Counted from the first letter of the stretch, positions 1,025-54,447 are shown. The stretch: DNA of 64,000 nt from Candidatus Kaiserbacteria bacterium (GCA_963699165.1 OY969413.1:141984-205983), one strand, 5' to 3'. Made by a program: numbers and translations. Notes: a model not told the origin generated them from the letters alone.

Positions 1025-2182
1025 TTACGGCAAGAATTGTTGCAGGAACTTCCCGAAGGTTGCGCCCATGCTTTTCTTCGGTGCAGTCGTATCGCCGGTG
1101 AGTCCCCAAAACGCAAGTCCGTACGCGACGGCCCAGGTCGCGTCGCGAATTTTCGTATCGGCGGAAATGCGAAACTCCGCAAGTCGCGCCGGAAGTTTGA
1201 GCGACCCTTTCGCAATGTCGCTGATGGAGCCGACGCCCGCGCCGCCGCCCGAGATGATGATTCCGGCCGGAAGCGGGCCGCGCCGTCCGAGCGATTTCAA
1301 ATGCTTGTCGATGAGCGCAAACATCGTGTTCAAGCGATTCGCGATAAAATCATCGACTTTTTTGCGCGGATACATTTGTCCCGAAAGCCGTCCGATTTTT
1401 ACCCGTTCCGCTTCTTCGAGCGAAATGCGGAAACCAAGCGCAATGTCGTCGGTGATGTGCGCCGAGCCCATCGGAAACACTTTTACCGAGATGGGTATGT
1501 TTTCGTCATACACGACGATTGACACCGTCTCGGCGCCGATGTTCGCAAGCACGCATCCTTTCATTTTCTGGTCGCCTTCAAGCAGAACGTACGAGCCCGC
1601 GAGCGGGGAAGCCATCCGGTCAATGATTTCAATGTCGGCGTCTTCGACCGCGGCCGCGAGCGCCTCCTCGTGCTGGGCAAGACAGGTCACAAAAAGATAA
1701 TCGATGTCGAGCTTGACGCCTTTCATGCCGACGGGGTCGCCAAGCACCTTGTTGCCGTCAATGCGGTATTCGAGCGGAATGCTGTGCAGCACATGGCGGT
1801 TGAGAAAGCCCGGTGCGGCTGCTTCGCGCGCCGCCTTGCCCGCTTTTTCCAGGTCGAGCGCTGTGATTTCTTGGTCGGCGCGGGAAATTATCGCCGAGCC
1901 GCTTGCGCGCGCTTCATCGAGCGAGATGCCGCCGATCGCCAAAAAAGCGGCGCGTATCGGAACCCGCGCCACCGACTCCGCCTGCCGCTTCGCTTCGCGG
2001 ATACTGACCGTAACCTCTTCTTTATTGACGATGTAGCCGTGACGCAGCCCTTTTGATTCCGCGAGCCCGGTGCCGAGGATGCGGCGCTGACGCACACCGC
2101 TTTTATCGGTGAGTTCCTCGATGACGACCATTTTCACTTGGTACGTCCCGATGTCGATTCCGGTTGCTATGCGTCGTGACAT
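1025..2182 (-). CDS. ftsA: Cell division protein FtsA
   Basis: ORF 1025..2257; N-terminus MSRRIATGIDIGTYQVKMVVIEE (actin-like ATPase, FtsA/MreB fold), immediately upstream of ftsZ on same strand. Start chosen at MSRR (2182). Confidence 0.85.
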   Translation of the reverse strand: MSRRIATGIDIGTYQVKMVVIEELTDKSGVRQRRILGTGLAESKGLRHGYIVNKEEVTVSIREAKRQAESVARVPIRAAFLAIGGISLDEARASGSAIISRADQEITALDLEKAGKAAREAAAPGFLNRHVLHSIPLEYRIDGNKVLGDPVGMKGVKLDIDYLFVTCLAQHEEALAAAVEDADIEIIDRMASPLAGSYVLLEGDQKMKGCVLANIGAETVSIVVYDENIPISVKVFPMGSAHITDDIALGFRISLEEAERVKIGRLSGQMYPRKKVDDFIANRLNTMFALIDKHLKSLGRRGPLPAGIIISGGGAGVGSISDIAKGSLKLPARLAEFRISADTKIRDATWAVAYGLAFWGLTGDTTAPKKSMGATFGKFLQQFLP

Positions 2183-2585
2183 GTGTAAGGGCGCGCGCGT
2201 CGCTTGCGGCGAATTTAGCCACAAGCTTCCGTTCGCATTGCTCCATAGTAGCGCCATGAGCCCATCCCTTCAAATGGAGTAATCCGTGGATAAACAAATA
2301 CAGCACAAAATCGCGTCCGCTAAGACCGTACTGCGGCGCCTGCTTTTCGGCTTCGCTCGGGCAAATGATAATCTCGCCGCTTCGCTTGCCGACTTCATAG
2401 GACAATACGTTTGGAGTGTATGTCTTGTCGCGCAGCTTTTCGTTGAGCCGCCGTGCCTTTGCCGGTCCGACAAACGCGAGCGAGATGCTCCAGTTCGGCA
2501 ACACGCTTTTGGCAACATCATCGTATGCAAAACGCGGCACCGATTTGCGCCGCGTTAAGTTCTGTATCGAAACAGCACCCTCCAT
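2103..2585 (-). CDS. ybeY: rRNA maturation endoribonuclease YbeY
   Basis: KTYTPNVLSY ... ICPSEAEKQA ... HGLLHLKGWAHG matches YbeY H-x-x-x-H-x5-H metal site; C-terminal tail overlaps ftsA start in another frame. Confidence 0.75.
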   Translation of the reverse strand: MEGAVSIQNLTRRKSVPRFAYDDVAKSVLPNWSISLAFVGPAKARRLNEKLRDKTYTPNVLSYEVGKRSGEIIICPSEAEKQAPQYGLSGRDFVLYLFIHGLLHLKGWAHGATMEQCERKLVAKFAASDARALTHVTTHSNRNRHRDVPSENGRHRGTHR

Positions 2586-2587
2586 TT

Positions 2588-2848
2588 TTAGCGCTTGCCG
2601 CGTGTCTTACGGGCTGCCGGGTCAATCTTGCCGAGTTTGACGAGTTCGTTGTAGTTTTCGCGGCGTGCCTTCGAGACGAGCGCCCGCTTGTGAACCGTGT
2701 TCTTTGATTCGGTGCGCTTTTGATAGCGGCGGTCGCGCATCTCGCGCACAAGACCGAGGCCCTGCGCGCGGCGGGTAAAACGGCGAATAAGAGCGGCCGA
2801 ACTCTCGTTCTTGCCGCGGCGGACCTCAACTCGTGTTCCTGCGTTCAT
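2588..2848 (-). CDS. rpsU: 30S ribosomal protein S21
   Basis: 86 aa, basic; VEVRRGKNESSAALIRRFTRRAQGLGLVREMRDRRYQKRTESKNTVHKRALVSKARRE resembles S21 family. Confidence 0.8.
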   Translation of the reverse strand: MNAGTRVEVRRGKNESSAALIRRFTRRAQGLGLVREMRDRRYQKRTESKNTVHKRALVSKARRENYNELVKLGKIDPAARKTRGKR

Positions 2849-2933
2849 GTGGAGGGGATTCTAGCACACCCGTGTCTTGCTTGTCTATGCCGCGCCGCCG
2901 AAACGCGTTTTGCACAGGTCTCTTTTTGCGGCC

Positions 2934-2961
2934 TTGACTCAAAAATAGGAGGGTGTAGATT
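2934..2961 (+). promoter_or_regulatory. Near-consensus sigma70-type promoter (TTGACT N16 TAGATT) reading into an ORF-free region
   Basis: TTGACT at 2934-2939, TAGATT at 2956-2961 on plus strand; no credible ORF downstream for about 400 bp. Confidence 0.35.
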
Positions 2962-2964
2962 CCG

Positions 2965-3330
2965 ACATAAGCCGACCCTTTCCCAATCGTGATGTTCCCG
3001 CCAGTGACAGCACAAAAGGGGAGAAATCGAACGGGAAAGGCCGGCATGGCATCGTCCAGTCGCCGCGAAGCTGAAACGAAAGAAGTGTGAGACATGGGTC
3101 TCGAGGACTCATAAGTCAAACGCTCGAGCGGAGCGACCATTCGCAAACGACCATCATCGTCGAGGAAAAACTCGCGGGATGATGGTCACACGGAGAGCCG
3201 AATGACGGCTCTTCAGAAAGATGGGGATTCGCGCCGATGTTATCGGTTTGCGAGTTTGTCTGAACCAAGGACCGAACTCGATGGATTGCGTTGCTTTAAG
3301 CGCATCCGTCGAGACCGGTCCTTTTGCTTT
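2965..3330 (+). ncRNA. Candidate structured non-coding RNA of unknown class
   Basis: About 500 bp between rpsU and the IS at 3360 has only short, low-complexity ORFs. Nested inverted repeats are present: CCATCATC..GATGATGG at about 3149-3183 and GAGAGCCG..CGGCTCTC at about 3193-3213. A long-range helix pairs GGTCTCGAGG (about 3096) with CGTCGAGACC (about 3307), and CTCGAG/TCGAG motifs recur. Not identifiable as tmRNA or RNase P from motifs. Confidence 0.2.
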
Positions 3331-3359
3331 TATGACCATAAAATTTGCATACGGGAAGC

Positions 3360-4291
3360 TGTACTAAGTCAACGCGTTGTTGACACTTTCTAGGTACGCC
3401 TCGAGTCTTCCGAATGGAGTTGTTCCGAGCGATTGGTGAATGCGGGTCTGGTTGTACCAGTCCACAAACGCATACAAATAGCGTCGGCGATGGGCTCGAG
3501 AGATGTGATTGGAACGTGTCTTCCCGTGCCATTCGGTCATGAGGGTTTTGATGAATCGCTCCGCTTTTCCATTGGTCCAGGGATGCTTCACTTTCGTGAA
3601 CGCTTGGCTCATGCCCGTTTCCCTGCAGAGTGCCGCCACCGGATGATCCGGTCGTCCCCGGTACTCGCTCCCGTTGTCGGAATAGATGCCGGTCACGGGG
3701 AACGGCAATACTCGCTTGCTCTCGGCGAGGAACATGGCGGCCGAGTATGCGGTCTTGTCGGGGAAGATATCGGCAAAGGCGGTACGAGAGTAGTCGTCAA
3801 TGGCGACAAATAGGTATTCTCTCGGTTGCGCGGCGGCTTCTCCTCGCAGGAGCGGCAGGCGCTTGGTATCGAGATGCAGCATTTCACCCGGTATCGATTT
3901 CTCGTATCGGTTCAATCGATGGGCTTTGCGGGCGAGCTTCTCTCCCACGCGCTTTTCGGTGCGAGCAAGCTTTTGGAACCCGTACAGGATGGTGCGATAT
4001 CGGTGATTCATCGAGGAACGATTCTCGAAGACGTTCAGTCGGGCATCTTTAAGTGTCTCGTATACGGTTTCTCGGGAGACTTTGTATTCTCGGGCCAAAT
4101 GGGTCGCTTGAGCTCCCATACCCCATCTGCGGAACATCTCACGCCGTTGGTACGGCAACAATTTGGTATTCTTGTGCATGCAAGAGGCGCTAACGATTAA
4201 ATGGTCTGAACACCAAAATCGTACCGCGCCTTTTGCGCTTTCAATGAACTCGTCGACGCGAAAAGTGTCAACAACCCGATACTAACGTACA
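3360..4291 (-). mobile_element. Single-copy IS481-family insertion sequence (distinct from the multi-copy IS481 element below) with 8-bp target-site duplication CGGGAAGC
   Basis: Imperfect terminal inverted repeats TGTACTAAGTCAACGCGTTGTTGACAC (3360-) versus reverse complement of ..GTGTCAACAACCCGATACTAACGTACA (-4291); identical CGGGAAGC at 3352-3359 and 4292-4299. Confidence 0.7.
3364..4179 (-). CDS. IS481-family DDE transposase (HTH + rve integrase core)
   Basis: 271 aa; LHLDTKRLP ... FVAIDDYSRTAFADIFPDKTAYSAAMFL ... SDNGSEY ... KVKHPWTNGKAERF ... YNQTRIHQSLG = DDE integrase core motifs. Confidence 0.85.
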   Translation of the reverse strand: MHKNTKLLPYQRREMFRRWGMGAQATHLAREYKVSRETVYETLKDARLNVFENRSSMNHRYRTILYGFQKLARTEKRVGEKLARKAHRLNRYEKSIPGEMLHLDTKRLPLLRGEAAAQPREYLFVAIDDYSRTAFADIFPDKTAYSAAMFLAESKRVLPFPVTGIYSDNGSEYRGRPDHPVAALCRETGMSQAFTKVKHPWTNGKAERFIKTLMTEWHGKTRSNHISRAHRRRYLYAFVDWYNQTRIHQSLGTTPFGRLEAYLESVNNALT

Positions 4292-4299
4292 CGGGAAGC

Positions 4300-5190
4300 T
4301 TGACAGATAAAATACAGTACGTATTCTGCTTCGAGACAACAGCACTCCGAAGGGTATTCAGACTCTGTTGGCACAGCTCCCGTATCATGGAAGCTATGTA
4401 CACGCTCAAACAAATTCCGTCTGAAGTGCAGATTAGAAAGTTTTTGCGGCGAACGTTGTTCGGAAAGAATGTGTTTTGCCCGCTCTGCCGCTCGCGCAGG
4501 ATTGTGCGGTACGAAGACCGGTACCGGTGTGTTGCCTGCCGCCGAAGGTTCTCGCTCCTCTCGCATACCTGGCTCTCAAACCTCAAGCTTCCGCTCCAGA
4601 CGTGGTGGATGCTCCTCTGGTGCTGGACGATACGAGAACCCGTCTTGCAGGCCATGGAGCTCACGCATTTGCCTGAACGAACGATACGCCGCTGGTATGC
4701 CACCTTTCGTGAGCATTTGCCCCAAGAAGAGTATATTCTCGAGCGTATCGTGCAGATGGACGAGGCATATTTCAAGAACGCAGCTCTCGTGATGGCCAAG
4801 CAGAAAGGAACGAGAAAGCTTGCCTATACCGTCATGCACAATCGCTTCCCGAACAAGACGGACGTGATGGACTTTCTCTTTGCCAAAGTGAAGCCGGGGA
4901 GCGAGTTGTGGACCGATGGCGGTTCGATATACCGGGGTGTCGGCAAGCGATGGCCGGTCTCCCACAGCAGAGACATTCATTCAAAATTCGAGTTCGAACA
5001 TACCTCCGAAATCGAAGGCGTGTTCGGCGTATACCGCACCTTTGTGCGGAGGATGTATCATCATCACTGGAGCGAGAACCTCGAGCAATACGTGAGGGAA
5101 TTCTGCTTCAGATTTTCCTCACCGGAATTGTTCGGAAATCCGCGCACTTACTTATTAAAATCATTAACGCTTGTGCCAACTCGTTCTTAA
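4300..5190 (+). CDS. IS1595-family (ISXO2-like) transposase with N-terminal zinc ribbon
   Basis: CPLCRSRRIVRYEDRYRCVACRRRFS zinc ribbon followed by DDE_Tnp_IS1595-like core (IVQMDEAYF ... LWTDGGSIY). True start may be the internal Met near 4390; element boundaries not resolved. Confidence 0.7.
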   Translation: MTDKIQYVFCFETTALRRVFRLCWHSSRIMEAMYTLKQIPSEVQIRKFLRRTLFGKNVFCPLCRSRRIVRYEDRYRCVACRRRFSLLSHTWLSNLKLPLQTWWMLLWCWTIREPVLQAMELTHLPERTIRRWYATFREHLPQEEYILERIVQMDEAYFKNAALVMAKQKGTRKLAYTVMHNRFPNKTDVMDFLFAKVKPGSELWTDGGSIYRGVGKRWPVSHSRDIHSKFEFEHTSEIEGVFGVYRTFVRRMYHHHWSENLEQYVREFCFRFSSPELFGNPRTYLLKSLTLVPTRS

Positions 5191-5221
5191 TACCCACTCC
5201 GAACGTCAAGGAGAATAATTC

Positions 5222-5746
5222 ATGGCAAATCGCGTCGCGGCCGTCCTCGTGATCCTGTTCCTCGCCGCTTCGATGGTGTCCCCGTCGATTGTTGCGGCCC
5301 AGGAAGCCCCGGTAGCGGCCTCGAAGGCAGATGTAACGCCGTCGCCGTCCGCCGAAACCATAGCCGGTCCAACCCCTACCCCGACCCCCTCGAATGGCAA
5401 CTATTCGGCGCGAACCAGGGAGGAGATGGCTCGCGTTGATGAGTCGGTTATCGACAGCGCCGGCTCCCGAAATACTCACCATGTTCTTCAGTACGCGGGT
5501 GCCGCATTGTTTGCGTGGGACATGTACGCCACGCAAGCTCGTGGCAATCAGTGCACAACGCCCGGTTGGATAGACCGCCCGATGTTCCATAATCCCGAAG
5601 TGTCGGTCGGATTCGGCATCGCGGTTGGCGCGATCATTCATTTCGTACCAAACAAGCCGTGGGGAAATGCGCTCCTCGGTCTGTTTGACGGCGTTGACGC
5701 GGTCAACGACCTCGCGTGGCGAAACAGGTGCAAGCCCGCCTCCTAA
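5222..5746 (+). CDS. Secreted hypothetical protein (signal peptide, Pro/Thr linker)
   Basis: N-terminus MANRVAAVLVILFLAASMVSPSIVAAQEAP is a classic signal peptide; followed by terminator hairpin. Confidence 0.5.
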   Translation: MANRVAAVLVILFLAASMVSPSIVAAQEAPVAASKADVTPSPSAETIAGPTPTPTPSNGNYSARTREEMARVDESVIDSAGSRNTHHVLQYAGAALFAWDMYATQARGNQCTTPGWIDRPMFHNPEVSVGFGIAVGAIIHFVPNKPWGNALLGLFDGVDAVNDLAWRNRCKPAS

Positions 5747-5802: not shown

Positions 5803-6945
5803 TTATGCAAATGTCCTCAACCGCTCCGCGAGATTGGCAATGGGCAGCATCGTTTCTTCCTGCGTCTGACGATTGCGCAGAATCGCCGAGCCCTCAAGCG
5901 CTTCTTTGCGTCCCATGATGAGGAGATACGGATTGGCGCGCGTCTCGGCGAGATGCAATTGCTCGGTGAGCGATTCGATGCCGATATTTTGCACGATAGG
6001 CACATGCGCTTTTTTAAAGTCCTCCGCGAGACGGATGGAAAGCCGTTTTGCCTCGTCGCCGATGTGGACGAACGTGAAGCGCAGGCGCGGCTGCGGCGGA
6101 TTTTTTACGACCTTTCCTTCCGTCGGCAGTTGGAGAATCGCACAGGTCGCATTGAACGGCGCTTTGGGAAAAAAGTGGCGGGTGAAGTCGCTGTAACGCG
6201 AACCCCATGCAAGCGTGCGGCCGGCGGCGCTGACTTCGAAACAGGTATCGTTCCAAACGTTGCCGCGGCTGATGAGGTTGCGCGCAAGTTCGTACGGAGT
6301 TTCCGTCATTTCAAGATATTCGAGCAAATCCTCAAAACGTTTGCGGCTCGCGTCCGAGAGCTGTTCCGTTGGGGCCGGAAGATCGTCGGCGTATTCGTTT
6401 GCGATGGCAAGTTCGGCCGCTTCAAACGTATCGCGCTTCGCGCAATTGACGCACTCCTCGGGCAATATCGCGGCGCGTTTCTTGAAAAAGTTCCCGAGCT
6501 CGCGCGCGTAGCGCGCGCGTGTCTCTTTGTCGCCCATGGAATTGATGCGAAGCACCGGTTCTTCGTGAAAAATGTCGCGGACAAGCGCGAGAAGCGCGCG
6601 GATGACGACGACGTCCGCAATCGCGCGGTCGCTCCCGAGCGCGTGGAATTGCACAATTGCTTTTTTCTGCGCCGGACGGCCGGGCGCGATATTGGTATGC
6701 CAAATGAAAAGCGGTTGGCGCGGATTCGGCACGGCTTCGATGTTTTGAACGTGCTTCAAAAAACCGGCGACGATTTCAGCGGAGGAATCGATCGAGACGC
6801 CCGCAAGCGATTCGGGATATACCGCCGGTTTGCGCGCGCCGCGCGCTTTGAGCGTAATCGCTGACAACGGCGTGAAGCCGTAGTATTGACCAACCGCATG
6901 CGCTTTGTGCAGGATTTCTTCGGCCGAAATAGTATCTCGCGTCAT
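5803..6945 (-). CDS. hisS: Divergent histidyl-tRNA synthetase-like class II aaRS (HisS/HisZ family)
   Basis: KKAIVQFHALGSD (cf. RYRQFHQ), LRINSMGDKETRARYARE, RGNVWNDTCFEV (cf. RGLDYYnrTVFE), GSRYSDF (cf. GGRYD) and C-terminal anticodon-binding-like LLIMGRKEALEGSAILRNRQTQEE. Start MTRD at 6945 overlaps lepB stop as ATGA. Confidence 0.55.
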   Translation of the reverse strand: MTRDTISAEEILHKAHAVGQYYGFTPLSAITLKARGARKPAVYPESLAGVSIDSSAEIVAGFLKHVQNIEAVPNPRQPLFIWHTNIAPGRPAQKKAIVQFHALGSDRAIADVVVIRALLALVRDIFHEEPVLRINSMGDKETRARYARELGNFFKKRAAILPEECVNCAKRDTFEAAELAIANEYADDLPAPTEQLSDASRKRFEDLLEYLEMTETPYELARNLISRGNVWNDTCFEVSAAGRTLAWGSRYSDFTRHFFPKAPFNATCAILQLPTEGKVVKNPPQPRLRFTFVHIGDEAKRLSIRLAEDFKKAHVPIVQNIGIESLTEQLHLAETRANPYLLIMGRKEALEGSAILRNRQTQEETMLPIANLAERLRTFA

Positions 6946-7553
6946 GGCGTCAGGGGATTTGTCGCGGCAGTTGCCGCTGAGGAGCTTGCATATGAAGCGC
7001 GGCCGGGAAGCGCGCCGAATTCCCGTATGGGAAGCACGCGCAGGTCGACGCGGCCGATGATGTTCTTTCTCGGCAACGGTCCCCACACGCGGCTGTCTGA
7101 GCTGTTCGGCCGGTTGTCGCCCATGACGAAGTATTCGCCCGGATTGAGCGTAACGGTGTTCGTGTATGTCGCGTCTTCGTTCACGATATAGGGCTCGCTG
7201 AGCGTGAAGCTTTGACCGTTCGGTTCGGTGATTGAGACGACGCCGTTGTCAATGGCGACCGTTTCGCCCGGCAAACCGATGATTCGCTTGATGTAAAATA
7301 CGGACGGGTCGCCCGGGTAGCGGAAGACGATGACATCGCCGCGCGCCGGCGCTTTTAGGTCGTACACAAGCTCGTCGACGATGAGATAGTCGAGGTTTTC
7401 GAACGTGGGGTGCATCGACTCGCCGTCCACGACGAACGGGGACGCGACGAAGATGCGAATCGGTATTACAAAGACTACGATGAGAAATGCAAGCGTGAAA
7501 AGATCCTTCAGAAGACCCTTTCCTGTGTCATTCATAAAGGCATTGTACTTGCT
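6942..7553 (-). CDS. lepB: Signal peptidase I
   Basis: VVDGESMHPTF ... YIKRIIGLPGE ... GDNRPNSSDSRVWG: Ser/Lys dyad boxes of SPase I. The longer ORF 6942..8099 is an artefactual N-terminal extension overlapping pth. Confidence 0.8.
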   Translation of the reverse strand, partial: SKYNAFMNDTGKGLLKDLFTLAFLIVVFVIPIRIFVASPFVVDGESMHPTFENLDYLIVDELVYDLKAPARGDVIVFRYPGDPSVFYIKRIIGLPGETVAIDNGVVSITEPNGQSFTLSEPYIVNEDATYTNTVTLNPGEYFVMGDNRPNSSDSRVWGPLPRKNIIGRVDLRVLPIREFGALPGRASYASSSAATAATNPLTP

Positions 7554-20041: not shown

Positions 20042-20046
20042 ACGAG

Positions 20047-20097
20047 AAAAGCGCGCGGCGGCATGATTTTCATCATGCCGCCGCGCGCTTTTCTTTT
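20047..20097. terminator. Strong bidirectional terminator
   Basis: AAAAGCGCGCGGCGGCATGAttttcaTCATGCCGCCGCGCGCTTTTCTTTTT. Confidence 0.65.
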
Positions 20098-20106
20098 TGA
20101 CGGGTA

Positions 20107-22186: not shown

Positions 22187-22193
22187 GTTGTGC

Positions 22194-22238
22194 GGCTAAC
22201 TGAAAGGGCCGCGCAATGCGCGGCCCTTTCAGTTAGCC
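22194..22238 (+). terminator. Terminator after sigma factor gene
   Basis: GGCTAACTGAAAGGGCCGCGCaatgCGCGGCCCTTTCAGTTAGCC long perfect hairpin. Confidence 0.6.
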
Positions 22239-22473
22239 GCGTAATGCGGCAGCAGAGTAGTCATAGCTATCGACATGATGATCAATAACGAAAGAGCTGA
22301 GAATGCGATCGTGGCCGCGTTTCTTCGCGCATTGTACTCGCCCGAAGATGAAAGAATTATGAAAATAAGGCGTATTCCGGCGTCCGGGCGCCTTCATCTT
22401 GCGTTCATGAGGACAGGGCTACACTGCATTCACGGTGCGGGGATTATTTATTAGAAATGGTACTATTGTCAAT

Positions 22474-26538: not shown

Positions 26539-27599
26539 GGCGACTAGTCTTTTGAATTCGAACGTTTGATACATTGAGCGAATGAAAAAACCTCCGGCGG
26601 TGCGCACTTCACAAGGTCCGAACGAGACGAAATACAGATACTGTTAGCGAAGGGATACTCTTTGCAAGATGTCGGAGATGCACTCGACCGACCGAAGAGT
26701 GTCATATGGTACGAGACGCAAAAGAAGAGGAAGGGACGGCCGTATGATGCTGCATATGCGCATCACATTTCATACGTACGAAGGAAATACAGCCGAGCGG
26801 TCGGCAAGATGATTGCTCTCGACCCGAAGCTCCGGAAGTTCATCGAGGCGCATCTCTTCGACGATCAGTCGCCCGAAAACATCTCACTTCGATTGAAGCG
26901 GATCGAGAAGGATATCGGATATGCTTCATCCTCGGCTATACGCCGATATATCAAGAGCCCGTATGGCAGACGGATCGAGTCGCATCGAGCAAAGTTATTC
27001 AAGAAGAGGCGACGCTCTCGGCCATCGAAACCACACATTGCCGACAAGCGCCTGATCGACAAACGACCGAGCAAAATCAACAAGCGATGGGGATTGGGTC
27101 ACATGGAGGGCGACTTCATCGTGTCGGGCAAGAGCGGTCAAGGCATCATTCTTGGTCTGCGGGATCGCAGGGTGCGCAAAAACCTGCTGGAGCGGATCCT
27201 GCCAGTGTCAGTGCGAAACGTGGAGCGAGCGCTTCGCAGAATGAAAAAGCGGTATCCCGAGATGCAGACCATCACATTCGACAACGATATTCTCTTTCTC
27301 GAACACAAACGGCTAGAGAAGGTGCTTGGGGTGAAGATATATTTCTGTCATGTGCATGCGCCATGGGAGAAGCCATCAATCGAGAATCTGAACAAGGACT
27401 TGCGGCGGTACATCCCGAAAAGCTCGGATATTTCAAAGTATTCAAAAAGATTTGTGCAGAAACTCGAAGCAAAGATGAATCGCCGCTTCATGGATGTGCT
27501 CGGTTCACTCACGCCAGATGAGGCGTATGCTGCGGAAAAGAAACAACGCGCTCAGAGGAGCGCAAAAAACCGTCGTTCGAATTGAGGGGTTTGGGTGCC
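26539..27599 (+). mobile_element. IS30-family insertion sequence copy A (1061 bp, TSD CGC)
   Basis: Identical to copies at 35958..37018 and 46880..47940 (both minus). Ends GGCGACTAGTCTTTTGAATTCGAACG / CGTTCGAATTGAGGGGTTTGGGTGCC form imperfect IRs. CGC at 26536-38 and 27600-02. Confidence 0.85.
26662..27585 (+). CDS. IS30-family transposase
   Basis: 307 aa; N-terminal HTH, DDE core HMEGDFIVSGKS ... ITFDNDILF ... CHVHAPWEKPSIENLNKDLRRY. Confidence 0.9.
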   Translation: MQDVGDALDRPKSVIWYETQKKRKGRPYDAAYAHHISYVRRKYSRAVGKMIALDPKLRKFIEAHLFDDQSPENISLRLKRIEKDIGYASSSAIRRYIKSPYGRRIESHRAKLFKKRRRSRPSKPHIADKRLIDKRPSKINKRWGLGHMEGDFIVSGKSGQGIILGLRDRRVRKNLLERILPVSVRNVERALRRMKKRYPEMQTITFDNDILFLEHKRLEKVLGVKIYFCHVHAPWEKPSIENLNKDLRRYIPKSSDISKYSKRFVQKLEAKMNRRFMDVLGSLTPDEAYAAEKKQRAQRSAKNRRSN

Positions 27600-35957: not shown

Positions 35958-37018
35958 GGCACCCAAACCCCTCAATTCGAACGACGGTTTTTTGCGCTCC
36001 TCTGAGCGCGTTGTTTCTTTTCCGCAGCATACGCCTCATCTGGCGTGAGTGAACCGAGCACATCCATGAAGCGGCGATTCATCTTTGCTTCGAGTTTCTG
36101 CACAAATCTTTTTGAATACTTTGAAATATCCGAGCTTTTCGGGATGTACCGCCGCAAGTCCTTGTTCAGATTCTCGATTGATGGCTTCTCCCATGGCGCA
36201 TGCACATGACAGAAATATATCTTCACCCCAAGCACCTTCTCTAGCCGTTTGTGTTCGAGAAAGAGAATATCGTTGTCGAATGTGATGGTCTGCATCTCGG
36301 GATACCGCTTTTTCATTCTGCGAAGCGCTCGCTCCACGTTTCGCACTGACACTGGCAGGATCCGCTCCAGCAGGTTTTTGCGCACCCTGCGATCCCGCAG
36401 ACCAAGAATGATGCCTTGACCGCTCTTGCCCGACACGATGAAGTCGCCCTCCATGTGACCCAATCCCCATCGCTTGTTGATTTTGCTCGGTCGTTTGTCG
36501 ATCAGGCGCTTGTCGGCAATGTGTGGTTTCGATGGCCGAGAGCGTCGCCTCTTCTTGAATACCTTTGCTCGATGCGACTCGATCCGTCTGCCATACGGGC
36601 TCTTGATATATCGGCGTATAGCCGAGGATGAAGCATATCCGATATCCTTCTCGATCCGCTTCAATCGAAGTGAGATGTTTTCGGGCGACTGATCGTCGAA
36701 GAGATGCGCCTCGATGAACTTCCGGAGCTTCGGGTCGAGAGCAATCATCTTGCCGACCGCTCGGCTGTATTTCCTTCGTACGTATGAAATGTGATGCGCA
36801 TATGCAGCATCATACGGCCGTCCCTTCCTCTTCTTTTGCGTCTCGTACCATATGACACTCTTCGGTCGGTCGAGTGCATCTCCGACATCTTGCAAAGAGT
36901 ATCCCTTCGCTAACAGTATCTGTATTTCGTCTCGTTCGGACCTTGTGAAGTGCGCACCGCCGGAGGTTTTTTCATTCGCTCAATGTATCAAACGTTCGAA
37001 TTCAAAAGACCAGTCGCC
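35958..37018 (-). mobile_element. IS30-family insertion sequence copy B (TSD AAA on plus strand)
   Basis: AAA at 35955-57 and 37019-21; inverted relative to copy A. Confidence 0.85.
35972..36895 (-). CDS. IS30-family transposase (copy B)
   Basis: Same 307-aa protein with one K/V substitution (RAKVFKK). Confidence 0.9.
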   Translation of the reverse strand: MQDVGDALDRPKSVIWYETQKKRKGRPYDAAYAHHISYVRRKYSRAVGKMIALDPKLRKFIEAHLFDDQSPENISLRLKRIEKDIGYASSSAIRRYIKSPYGRRIESHRAKVFKKRRRSRPSKPHIADKRLIDKRPSKINKRWGLGHMEGDFIVSGKSGQGIILGLRDRRVRKNLLERILPVSVRNVERALRRMKKRYPEMQTITFDNDILFLEHKRLEKVLGVKIYFCHVHAPWEKPSIENLNKDLRRYIPKSSDISKYSKRFVQKLEAKMNRRFMDVLGSLTPDEAYAAEKKQRAQRSAKNRRSN

Positions 37019-39565: not shown

Positions 39566-39669
39566 TGGGTAGTGTTGAATAGACAACGCTCGGCGTCTTA
39601 ATCGGGCGCAAAAGCAAAATCGTCCTCAAACGAGGACGATTTTGCTTTTGCGCCCGGTCGGAATCTTGG

Positions 39670-46879: not shown

Positions 46880-47940
46880 GGCACCCAAACCCCTCAATTC
46901 GAACGACGGTTTTTTGCGCTCCTCTGAGCGCGTTGTTTCTTTTCCGCAGCATACGCCTCATCTGGCGTGAGTGAACCGAGCACATCCATGAAGCGGCGAT
47001 TCATCTTTGCTTCGAGTTTCTGCACAAATCTTTTTGAATACTTTGAAATATCCGAGCTTTTCGGGATGTACCGCCGCAAGTCCTTGTTCAGATTCTCGAT
47101 TGATGGCTTCTCCCATGGCGCATGCACATGACAGAAATATATCTTCACCCCAAGCACCTTCTCTAGCCGTTTGTGTTCGAGAAAGAGAATATCGTTGTCG
47201 AATGTGATGGTCTGCATCTCGGGATACCGCTTTTTCATTCTGCGAAGCGCTCGCTCCACGTTTCGCACTGACACTGGCAGGATCCGCTCCAGCAGGTTTT
47301 TGCGCACCCTGCGATCCCGCAGACCAAGAATGATGCCTTGACCGCTCTTGCCCGACACGATGAAGTCGCCCTCCATGTGACCCAATCCCCATCGCTTGTT
47401 GATTTTGCTCGGTCGTTTGTCGATCAGGCGCTTGTCGGCAATGTGTGGTTTCGATGGCCGAGAGCGTCGCCTCTTCTTGAATAACTTTGCTCGATGCGAC
47501 TCGATCCGTCTGCCATACGGGCTCTTGATATATCGGCGTATAGCCGAGGATGAAGCATATCCGATATCCTTCTCGATCCGCTTCAATCGAAGTGAGATGT
47601 TTTCGGGCGACTGATCGTCGAAGAGATGCGCCTCGATGAACTTCCGGAGCTTCGGGTCGAGAGCAATCATCTTGCCGACCGCTCGGCTGTATTTCCTTCG
47701 TACGTATGAAATGTGATGCGCATATGCAGCATCATACGGCCGTCCCTTCCTCTTCTTTTGCGTCTCGTACCATATGACACTCTTCGGTCGGTCGAGTGCA
47801 TCTCCGACATCTTGCAAAGAGTATCCCTTCGCTAACAGTATCTGTATTTCGTCTCGTTCGGACCTTGTGAAGTGCGCACCGCCGGAGGTTTTTTCATTCG
47901 CTCAATGTATCAAACGTTCGAATTCAAAAGACCAGTCGCC
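46880..47940 (-). mobile_element. IS30-family insertion sequence copy C (imperfect TSD)
   Basis: Identical 1061 bp; flanks give TTG/GTG (2 of 3) in element orientation; about 28 bp upstream of the KGG gene start. Confidence 0.85.
46894..47817 (-). CDS. IS30-family transposase (copy C)
   Basis: Identical to copy A protein. Confidence 0.9.
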   Translation of the reverse strand: MQDVGDALDRPKSVIWYETQKKRKGRPYDAAYAHHISYVRRKYSRAVGKMIALDPKLRKFIEAHLFDDQSPENISLRLKRIEKDIGYASSSAIRRYIKSPYGRRIESHRAKLFKKRRRSRPSKPHIADKRLIDKRPSKINKRWGLGHMEGDFIVSGKSGQGIILGLRDRRVRKNLLERILPVSVRNVERALRRMKKRYPEMQTITFDNDILFLEHKRLEKVLGVKIYFCHVHAPWEKPSIENLNKDLRRYIPKSSDISKYSKRFVQKLEAKMNRRFMDVLGSLTPDEAYAAEKKQRAQRSAKNRRSN

Positions 47941-53037: not shown

Positions 53038-54387
53038 TTGGGGGTCAGGTCAGATGCAGGAGAGATAACCTATATGATACGCACGGGTGTCATTGAAGAC
53101 CTCAAGCTCGCCGCCTATCATTTTGAAAACACGCCCGAGGGTATTTGGATGCTTCAAATGGCACTCTCACAATCTCAATACGAAAGCGCAAAGAAGGGGC
53201 GCGATGTGAAGCGTGGACTTATGCAGAAAGCAAAAATGGGTGTTTATCCTGCGCCCGCGTCCATCGGCTATATGAATGACAAGCACGCCGAAAAGGGATA
53301 CAAGACCATCCACGCGGACCCCGAACGCTTTGACATCGTGCGGAAGATGTTTGACCTGATGCTCGCAGGTGCGCATACGCCACCGCGTATTTTGGAGATT
53401 GCGACGAAAGAGTGGGAGCTACGGATGCCGAAAGGAAAACCTTTGAGCCGAAGCAATGTCTATCTGCTTTTTACACGCGAGTTCTACTACGGCGAGTTTG
53501 AGTACCCTGTAGGAAGCGGCAACTGGCACAAAGGCGTCCATAAGCCGATGATTACGCGCGAGGAGTTTGACCGCATACAAGTATTGCTCGGCAGGAGAAG
53601 CAACCCACGCCAGAAACGGCACGAGATTATGTATCGCGGTCCGATAAAGTGTGGCGAGTGCGGCTGTATGATTACTGCCGAGGAAAAAACGAAGTATCAG
53701 AAAAACGGCAATAAGCACGATTACACCTACTATCATTGCACCAAGCGTAGGGACCCGAACTGCAAGCAACCCCCGATTGAAGAAGCCGAGCTTGAAAAGC
53801 AGATTGCCAAAGAGGTTGGCTCTATAGAGATACCCGAGGACTTCACAAAATGGGCTCTGGCACGCCTTCGGGAGATGAATACGCAGGAGGTATCTGACCG
53901 AGACCGCATCTACGGCTCGCAGAGGCGCGAATACGAGGGATGTGTGCGTAAGATAGATAACCTCATTGATATGCGTGCCAATAACGAACTCACAGAGGAT
54001 GAGTTCAAGGGCAGAAAGCAAACACTCCTTGCTGAAAAGGAGCGACTTGCCTCACTGCTCAAGGATACTGACAAGCGCGTAGAGAACTGGCTTGAGATTG
54101 CCGAGCGCGGTTTCAACTTTGCAGAGAAAGCGGCGGCTATTTTTGCCGAAGCGAAGGAGAATGACGACATTGAGACGCGCAAAGAGATTTTTGCCTCATT
54201 AGGTTCGGACCTCATCTTGAAAGACAAAATACTAAGCATTGACTGGGATAATCTGCTGTTCCCGATACAAACAATGGCAAAAGAAGTCCGCGCCGTTCAC
54301 GCAGAGTTAGAACCTGTAGAAAACTCAGTAAATACAAAGGATTATGGCGAACTCTACTCTCAAAATCCTATCTTGCTCCGGCGGTAG
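53038..54387 (+). pseudogene. N-terminally truncated large serine recombinase (Recombinase domain + zinc-ribbon + coiled coil; resolvase catalytic domain missing)
   Basis: GVYPAPASIGYMNDKHAEKGYKTIHADPERFDIVRKMFDLMLAGAHTPPRILEIATKEWELRMPKGKPLSRSNVYLLFTREFYYGEFEY is the Recombinase domain (PF07508 type). CGECGCMITAEEKTKYQKNGNKHDYTYYHCTKRR is the zinc ribbon. The ORF begins inside the IS3 right end, so the Ser catalytic domain is absent. The 3' end overlaps the tRNA-Asn 3' end. Confidence 0.65.
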
Positions 54388-54447
54388 GATTCGAACCTAC
54401 AACCAACGCCTTAACAGGGCGCTGCTCTACCATTGAGCTACACCGGA
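54376..54447 (-). tRNA. tRNA-Asn (anticodon GUU)
   Basis: Reverse complement reads TCCGGTG ta GCTC AATGGTA GAGC a GCGCC CTGTTAA GGCGT tggtt GTAGG TTCGAAT CCTAC CGCCGGA g: 7-bp acceptor, D-arm, anticodon loop CUGUUAA, T-arm with TTCGAAT. Confidence 0.8.

Follow-up and report, generated by a model that had tools for sequence, protein, structure and literature searches.

The window analyzed here is a 64-kb stretch of the ~993-kb contig of an uncultured Candidatus Kaiserbacteria bacterium, which belongs to the Candidate Phyla Radiation (CPR; Paceibacterota/Minisyncoccia). At positions 2849-3359, between rpsU and an IS481-like insertion sequence (IS), an earlier note on this DNA had singled out a helix-rich segment free of open reading frames (ORFs) as a candidate non-coding RNA of no recognized class. 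The plus strand of this segment carries a promoter-like sequence, a string of six predicted hairpins and an intrinsic terminator. We consider the chances about even that a structured RNA of ~365 nt outside the described families is encoded at 2967-3331 (plus strand) by a stand-alone gene specific to this lineage, as judged from a single sequence.

Architecture of the candidate RNA gene

The unit comprises the following features, hairpins being numbered H1 to H6 and all six having pair probabilities within 0.9-0.99.

2934-2961, plus strand: candidate promoter of the RNA, TTGACT-16-TAGATT
2967-3331, plus strand: predicted RNA of ~365 nt, delimited by promoter, fold and terminator
2971-3045, plus strand: H1, a long interrupted hairpin with core CCUUUCCC/GGGAAAGG (pair probabilities 0.91-0.99), starting 3-5 nt past the predicted RNA start
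3046-3084, plus strand: purine-rich, weakly structured linker GCGAAGCUGAAACGAAAGAAG (pair probabilities 0.1-0.56), with a 14-codon ORF from 3047
3085-3123, plus strand: H2, a hairpin (pair probabilities 0.94-0.97)
3124-3148, plus strand: second purine-rich, weakly paired linker
3149-3187, plus strand: H3, a hairpin with a perfect 10-bp stem and an inner 4-bp stem (pair probability 0.99)
3192-3214, plus strand: H4, a hairpin of 9 bp (pair probability 0.99)
3219-3261, plus strand: H5, a hairpin of 18 bp including 5 G-U pairs
3267-3331, plus strand: H6, the intrinsic terminator, a 23-bp hairpin (3267-3323; ~-36 kcal/mol) followed by UUUUGCUUUU

The candidate promoter lies back-to-back with that of rpsU and predicts a transcript start at ~2967-2969. 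The earlier note had described it as near-consensus; the element TTGACT-N16-TAGATT is indeed present at 2934-2961 on the plus strand, but with a match of only 9 of 12 positions the description was too generous. A promoter, a Rho-independent terminator and the lack of an ORF are the marks of a stand-alone small RNA gene, and all three are found here. The perfect inverted repeats reported earlier also exist (GACCATCATC/GATGATGGTC at 3149-3158/3178-3187 and GGAGAGCCG/CGGCUCUUC at 3192-3200/3206-3214), although as adjacent hairpins and not nested as had been stated. A proposed long-range helix closing a domain of ~220 nt did not hold up: it amounts to an 8-nt perfect match (3097-3104/3309-3316), the only one observed where chance alone predicts 1.75, and its arms are engaged in local hairpins (pair probabilities 0.94-0.95).

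Excess of structure is strand-specific. Folded as RNA, the plus strand of 2965-3340 reached -162.5 kcal/mol (z -8.0), a value as low as which was given by none of 100 shuffles, versus -143.2 kcal/mol (z -5.0) for the minus strand. With the terminator hairpin left out, the body still scored z -5.1 on the plus strand (0 of 200 shuffles) and -3.4 on the minus strand. H6 terminates on the plus strand only, the minus-strand copy having no U run downstream. In the helices of the plus strand there are 14 G-U pairs and not a single A-C 1x1 mismatch, and decaying DNA palindromes should yield both equally; the RNA would therefore be read from the plus strand. The plus strand of the predicted RNA is also purine-rich (GC skew +0.155, AT skew +0.237), unlike its flanks.

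When 2122 windows of 360 nt were scanned over the 64 kb, overlapping plus-strand windows spanning 3061-3540 were, given their GC content, among the most over-folded. Only one other place in the 64 kb compares with them, a terminator formed by one perfect palindrome where two genes converge. Among the fold-energy outliers of the window, perfect palindromes at gene ends predominate; those at 20043-20100, 22192-22240 and 39601-39658 are hairpins of ~22-27 bp with flanking A and T runs, resembling bidirectional terminators. The multi-hairpin, G-U-rich build of the RNA region differs from these single perfect palindromes.

Coding potential

Codon usage was modeled on 32 long ORFs of the window and expressed as log-odds per 50-codon window, which gave 0.26+/-0.18 for genes in frame and -0.29+/-0.22 for off-frames. 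The six frames of 2849-3359 mostly scored from -0.6 to +0.1 and held 2-8 stop codons each. A single 50-codon window reached 0.30 on the minus strand, opposite H5-H6, and the whole ORF that contains it scored 0.03. No ORF in 2849-3359 matched Pfam or PHROG, and tblastx of the region against 96 relatives' loci gave no significant match, the best one (L056) being out of frame and interrupted by stop codons. Thus, the segment between rpsU and the IS has no coding potential, as the earlier note had maintained from the absence of a protein-like reading frame.

Comparison with known RNA classes

A search of the whole window with Rfam 15 at the gathering threshold gave no match to the RNA region. At E<=10 on 2700-3500 (801 nt, both strands), only a chance match to mir-146 appeared, with 22 bits versus a gathering score of 50; the Rfam comparison suggested in the earlier note therefore recognizes no family at either setting. 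ARAGORN found no tmRNA in the window, its only call being tRNA-Asn at 54375-54447. No RNase P RNA, tmRNA, 6S RNA or signal recognition particle (SRP) RNA was thus detected, in keeping with the earlier view of an RNA of no recognized class.

Motif inspection points the same way. RNase P RNA (Rfam RF00010/RF00011) and tmRNA (RF00023) resemble the candidate in being highly structured products of single-copy non-coding genes of ~350-400 nt. The candidate differs from them in having no covariance-model match at E<=10 and no ARAGORN call, and it is missing from this locus in relatives. The region holds no RNase P P4 motif (GGAAAGUCC paired with ...CCGGCUUA) and no P4 helix of the conserved segments GGAAAGUCCGG and ACAGAAnCCGGCUUA: AAGCCGACC and GGCCGGC form just the base of the local hairpin H1, and neither strand offers a partner motif. 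Nor does it hold a T-arm, an acceptor-CCA, a tRNA-like domain or a tag reading frame. Likewise, 6S RNA and large SRP RNA (RF00013 and RF01854) are non-coding, structured and independently transcribed, but the candidate is twice the size of 6S and shows neither the central bubble nor the ~180-nt rod, closed by the 5' and 3' ends, of 6S-type RNAs: the predicted fold consists of six separate hairpins, and its ends pair over at most 5 bp. SRP domain IV is absent from the region, again with no Rfam match. For a riboswitch or T-box there was no Rfam match at E<=10, the only alternative pairing is the chance-level 8-mer, and the gene downstream has a promoter of its own.

In build the candidate also resembles regulatory or scaffold RNAs of bacteria that stand alone and consist of many hairpins, such as the CsrB/RsmB family (RF00018, ~350 nt), with which it shares its approximate size, a sigma-70-type promoter of its own, a Rho-independent terminator, a string of independent stem-loops and the lack of coding potential. 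However, its GGA motifs are not enriched (10 versus 9.3+/-2.2 in shuffles), 8 of the 10 lie within stems, and Rfam gives no match; we rejected a CsrB/Rsm-type sponge on the GGA counts. A guide array of the TIGR or CRISPR type was rejected for want of tandem or spaced repeats, the neighbors being rpsU, two transposases and an orphan gene, and an origin of replication for want of DnaA boxes in the region. With REP/BIME-like and MITE-like palindromes the candidate shares several strong hairpins in an intergenic hot spot, and elements of this sort occur at the junction in relatives; it differs in that its hairpins are unique in the window and among relatives, its G-U pairs run in one strand sense, and a promoter and terminator frame it.

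Surroundings of the RNA region

The flanking genes and mobile elements are as follows.

2588-2848, minus strand: rpsU, followed by ybeY, ftsA and ftsZ
2858-2887, minus strand: rpsU promoter, with -35 TAGACA (2887-2882), an 18-nt spacer and extended -10 TGcTAGAAT (2866-2858); 10 of 12 positions match and the TG is present
3352-3359 and 4292-4299: target-site duplication CGGGAAGC (8 bp) of the IS481-like element
3360-4291, minus strand: IS481-like element with inverted ends TGTAC...GTTGTTGACACTTT, the 30-nt inverted end starting at 3360
3364-4179, minus strand: rve-family transposase of the IS481-like element
4300-4327, plus strand: promoter of an orphan gene, TTGACA-16-TATTCT (10 of 12 positions match)
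4344-4351 and 5196-5203: target-site duplication ACTCCGAA (8 bp) of the IS1595-like element
4352-5195, plus strand: IS1595-like element with inverted ends GGGTATTCAG.../...TTAATACCC
5222-5746, plus strand: orphan gene of 174 aa, with a predicted N-terminal signal or transmembrane segment
5803-7086, minus strand: hisS, its 3' end facing the orphan gene

The rpsU ATG at 2848 is only 9 nt past the -10 element, and the rpsU mRNA is for this reason predicted to be effectively leaderless. The leftmost ~40 nt of 2849-3359 belong to the rpsU promoter and lie outside the RNA candidate. This promoter is kept upstream of rpsU in nearly all of 21 relatives inspected. Across Kaiserbacteria-like genomes (L004-L088) it follows the pattern (T/A)RGACA-17/18-TGnGCTAGAGT, with the ATG ~9-10 nt past the -10, which would leave the mRNA without a leader in these genomes too; the TAG that ends hisS contributes to the rpsU -35 wherever the two genes abut.

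On the other side, three further data sets yielded same-strain contigs that match the window with 100% identity over 2849-3359 and all break just inside the IS481-like element. The order before IS insertion can be rebuilt as rpsU (minus strand), RNA region, orphan-gene promoter (4300-4327), ribosome-binding site, the 174-aa gene (plus strand), a hairpin terminator and the 3' end of hisS (minus strand). The spacer from the RNA terminator to the orphan ATG would then have been ~98 nt; both IS elements landed there and left the RNA region untouched. The IS481-like element sits directly upstream of the -35 of the orphan-gene promoter, and the IS1595-like insertion severs the orphan gene from this promoter (TTGACA-16-TATTCT). 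Among 5.8 billion proteins the 174-aa product matches only itself. Its codon usage is native-like, and AlphaFold run without an alignment gave an unusable model (pLDDT 49).

For comparison, 80 rpsU loci were fetched from species representatives; similarity searches covered 96 relatives' loci in all and covariance-model searches 799 kb. In nearly all of the 80 loci hisS lies directly upstream of rpsU. The gap measures 30-116 nt in 47 of them and 213-1983 nt in 28 (within L008-L083), where it is filled with small genes, terminators and long palindromes that are mutually unrelated. The junction is thus an insertion hot spot. A near-perfect hairpin of ~150 nt occupies it in L012, and L035, L053 and L088 share palindromes centered on CCTATAGG.

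Without the IS elements, the hisS-rpsU gap of the window measures ~1.1 kb and is made up of the RNA region and the orphan 174-aa gene, a block that appears to be a lineage-specific insertion splitting the conserved junction. GCATA occurs at both edges of the block, one copy being at the stop codon of hisS (5808-5804) and the other immediately ahead of the -35 of rpsU (2890-2886), and relatives have a single GCATAGACA; this would fit insertion with a 5-bp target duplication into an ancestral GCATAGACA. No terminal inverted repeats of the block were seen. The RNA region is single copy in the window, and its hairpins are repeated neither there nor in the 96 loci. The nearest HisRS in a large protein collection is only 82% identical.

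A possible positional counterpart in the closest relative

That closest relative is L084 (JGI Ga0480566_0022325), whose contig ends 319 nt past hisS (2103-2421, minus strand of the locus). These 319 nt contain a unit in which a TTGACA-16-TATGGT promoter precedes hairpins that extend over ~240 nt; the unit ends in a strong terminator, GGCCGCG...CGCGGUC and then UUUUUAUUUUU. The strand of the unit folds to -120 kcal/mol (z -5.3) and its complement to -82 kcal/mol (z -2.6), and the former has 18 G-U pairs and not one A-C mismatch, a strand asymmetry even stronger than that of the window RNA. The unit has no Rfam match and no homologue in any of the relatives' loci.

As in the window, the L084 unit is placed past the hisS stop and antisense to hisS, and has a TTGAC -35 / ...AGGGTGTA... 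promoter, G-U-rich hairpins and a strong terminator. It differs in length (~240 versus ~365 nt) and in the order and size of its hairpins, and is hit by neither of two covariance models built on H1-H2 and H3-H5 of the window RNA. We rejected homology as unproven: 13 of 200 shuffles attain the local alignment score of the two sequences, whose common 9-mer is expected by chance. Other relatives inspected have no gap, or protein-coding or palindromic insertions.

Two unrelated sequences of like build in the same place are suggestive, and a sample of two establishes no family. It is rather improbable, in our estimate, that they represent a fast-evolving large structured RNA gene at the hisS-rpsU junction of one Kaiserbacteria-like sublineage, conserved in position and orientation. 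Such a CPR-specific class would keep its place, promoter type and hairpin- and G-U-rich build (~365 nt in the window, ~240 nt in L084) and lose all sequence similarity. Functionally, an RNA class of this kind may be linked with hisS or with leaderless rpsU, perhaps by insulating the two genes in antisense or by regulating read-through between them.

Discussion

If 2967-3331 is an RNA gene, the following course of events would be expected. An insertion of ~1.1 kb bearing the RNA and the orphan gene would first have split hisS from rpsU, the two IS elements landing later in the ~98-nt spacer. Transcription would start at the sigma-70-type promoter (2934-2961), divergent from leaderless rpsU, and end at the intrinsic terminator (3267-3331). 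The transcript would form a row of six stem-loops with two weakly paired, purine-rich linkers between them, and might act in trans, most likely through pairing of the linkers or as a scaffold for proteins. Transcription, stability and action in trans are inferred here from sequence. The earlier proposal of an unrecognized structured non-coding RNA on the plus strand gains strength from the strand-specific fold, the G-U asymmetry, a terminator that had been missed and the independence from the IS.

Several observations weigh against an RNA gene. A lack of conservation in relatives was named in the earlier note as an outcome that would refute the proposal, and no conservation was detectable in the hisS-rpsU loci of ~90 relatives or in any collection searched. 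Neither nhmmer and blastn of the region against the relatives' loci nor the two single-sequence covariance models yielded a homologue; covariance-model matches in L025 (57 nt spread over 119 model positions) and L010 (8612-8759, inside a 307-aa ORF) were rejected as spurious. There was also no match by blastn to phages and plasmids, and three 20-21-mers had 0 matches in viral contigs. One 21-mer run against JGI metagenomes gave a single match within a 190-aa coding gene (EKLKRKK), rejected as chance. The four recovered copies (the window and L001-L003) are 100% identical and provide neither variation for covariation nor an IS-free allele, and the L084 unit shows no significant similarity. Promoter sites of 9/12 quality arise ~1.2 times per 2 kb in shuffles, making this promoter weak evidence on its own. 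The structure itself is a plain string of hairpins, whose predicted fold lacks multi-way junctions, terminal loops of the GNRA or UNCG type and any supported long-range pairs. Finally, the junction holds apparently non-functional palindromic hairpin DNA in other genomes.

This last point leads to the main rival explanation, by which the region is hairpin-rich insertion DNA composed of decayed palindromes and terminators with a fortuitous promoter-like site, perhaps transcribed but functionless. We regard this as possible and, on the whole, doubtful. Unrelated material of 213-1983 nt at the junction of 28 of the 80 relatives is what it would predict, as are the long palindromes that dominate several insertions (L012, L035, L053, L088), the very long perfect hairpins that this genome uses at gene ends, the lack of conservation and the abundance of IS elements. 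However, decaying palindromes should lose pairing symmetrically, and here G-U pairs occur in the plus sense only (14 versus 0 A-C) with asymmetric z-scores. The hairpins are also unrepeated in the 64 kb or in relatives, and the structure is bounded exactly by the promoter, the 5' hairpin and a terminator that works in one direction. That both IS elements hit the ~98-nt spacer and not the ~400-nt structured part is a weak argument in the same direction. An origin from the adjoining IS481-like element, as its decayed or extended end, has next to no likelihood. The region directly abuts this element, but the inverted end starts at 3360 and the duplication CGGGAAGC (3352-3359/4292-4299) places the region outside; from the IS boundaries and target duplications it is therefore not an IS end, and this alternative, raised in the earlier note, is ruled out. 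In addition, assemblies from the other samples break inside the IS and not in the RNA region, which has no similarity to any of the at least 10 IS copies in the window.

Other explanations grant the region a transcript and read it differently. It could be a cis-acting leader, resembling an attenuator or riboswitch, whose conditional terminator once controlled the orphan gene (5222-5746) and was disconnected by the two IS elements. The shared orientation and the pre-IS distance of ~98 nt from terminator to ATG suit such a leader, the H2 segment 3097-3104 is complementary to the terminator's 3' arm (3309-3316) and could act like an antiterminator, and the 14-codon linker ORF could be a leader peptide. 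We nevertheless find this unlikely, as a better promoter (10/12) of the orphan gene itself lies between terminator and ribosome-binding site, the alternative pairing does not exceed chance (1 observed, 1.75 expected), the terminator stem (-36 kcal/mol) is far stabler than the 8-bp alternative, no riboswitch or T-box matched at E<=10, and the L084 unit points at the hisS 3' end with no gene downstream. Very unlikely is an mRNA or dual-function RNA for very small proteins, namely the 14-aa ORF (3047-3091) or an ORF of ~53 aa in the pre-IS form from 3202, with GGAG 6 nt upstream. Shine-Dalgarno-like purine runs precede both start codons but are buried in stems; the 3202 ORF has a codon score of -0.23 versus 0.26 for real genes and crosses the terminator hairpin and U tract, and Pfam and PHROG gave no match. 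Even less probable is that the region encodes a housekeeping RNA (RNase P, tmRNA, 6S or SRP) so divergent that standard models miss it. A length of ~365 nt would suit RNase P RNA or tmRNA, and neither was found elsewhere in the window. Against this stand the Rfam result at E<=10 on 801 nt, the ARAGORN result and the absence of a P4 motif, T-arm, acceptor-CCA or 6S-like rod. The region moreover sits in a lineage-specific insertion missing from relatives, which must all have such RNAs, and the real genes may lie in the other ~930 kb of the contig.

To our knowledge, the regulatory and structural RNAs of the CPR are almost unexplored. CPR genomes measure ~1 Mb and contain very little non-coding DNA, and a structured, ORF-free unit of ~400 nt running from promoter to terminator is therefore unlikely to be idle. 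If transcribed, it would be among the few large non-housekeeping RNAs proposed for the CPR, and a relative may have a counterpart of it in the same position. For now the candidate is a single-genome orphan, of value more as a concrete target for metatranscriptomics than as a finding.

Additional observations on the window

The HisRS-like protein encoded at 5803-7086 (minus strand; 380 aa in database entries) has a single Pfam match, to the anticodon-binding domain HGTP_anticodon (E 1.7e-6), the catalytic part going unrecognized by Pfam. Its NCBI name refers to the C-terminal domain only.

The 64 kb hold at least 10 IS copies, an unusual load for a reduced CPR genome of ~1 Mb. Five are of the IS481 type with a 347-aa rve transposase, three are identical 1061-bp elements with a 307-aa transposase (phrog_4646), and one further IS481-like and one IS1595-like element complete the set. 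They are located at 3360-4291, 4352-5195, 10.5k, 14.3k, 28.5k, 51.7k, 54.5k, 26539-27599, 35958-37018 and 46880-47940.

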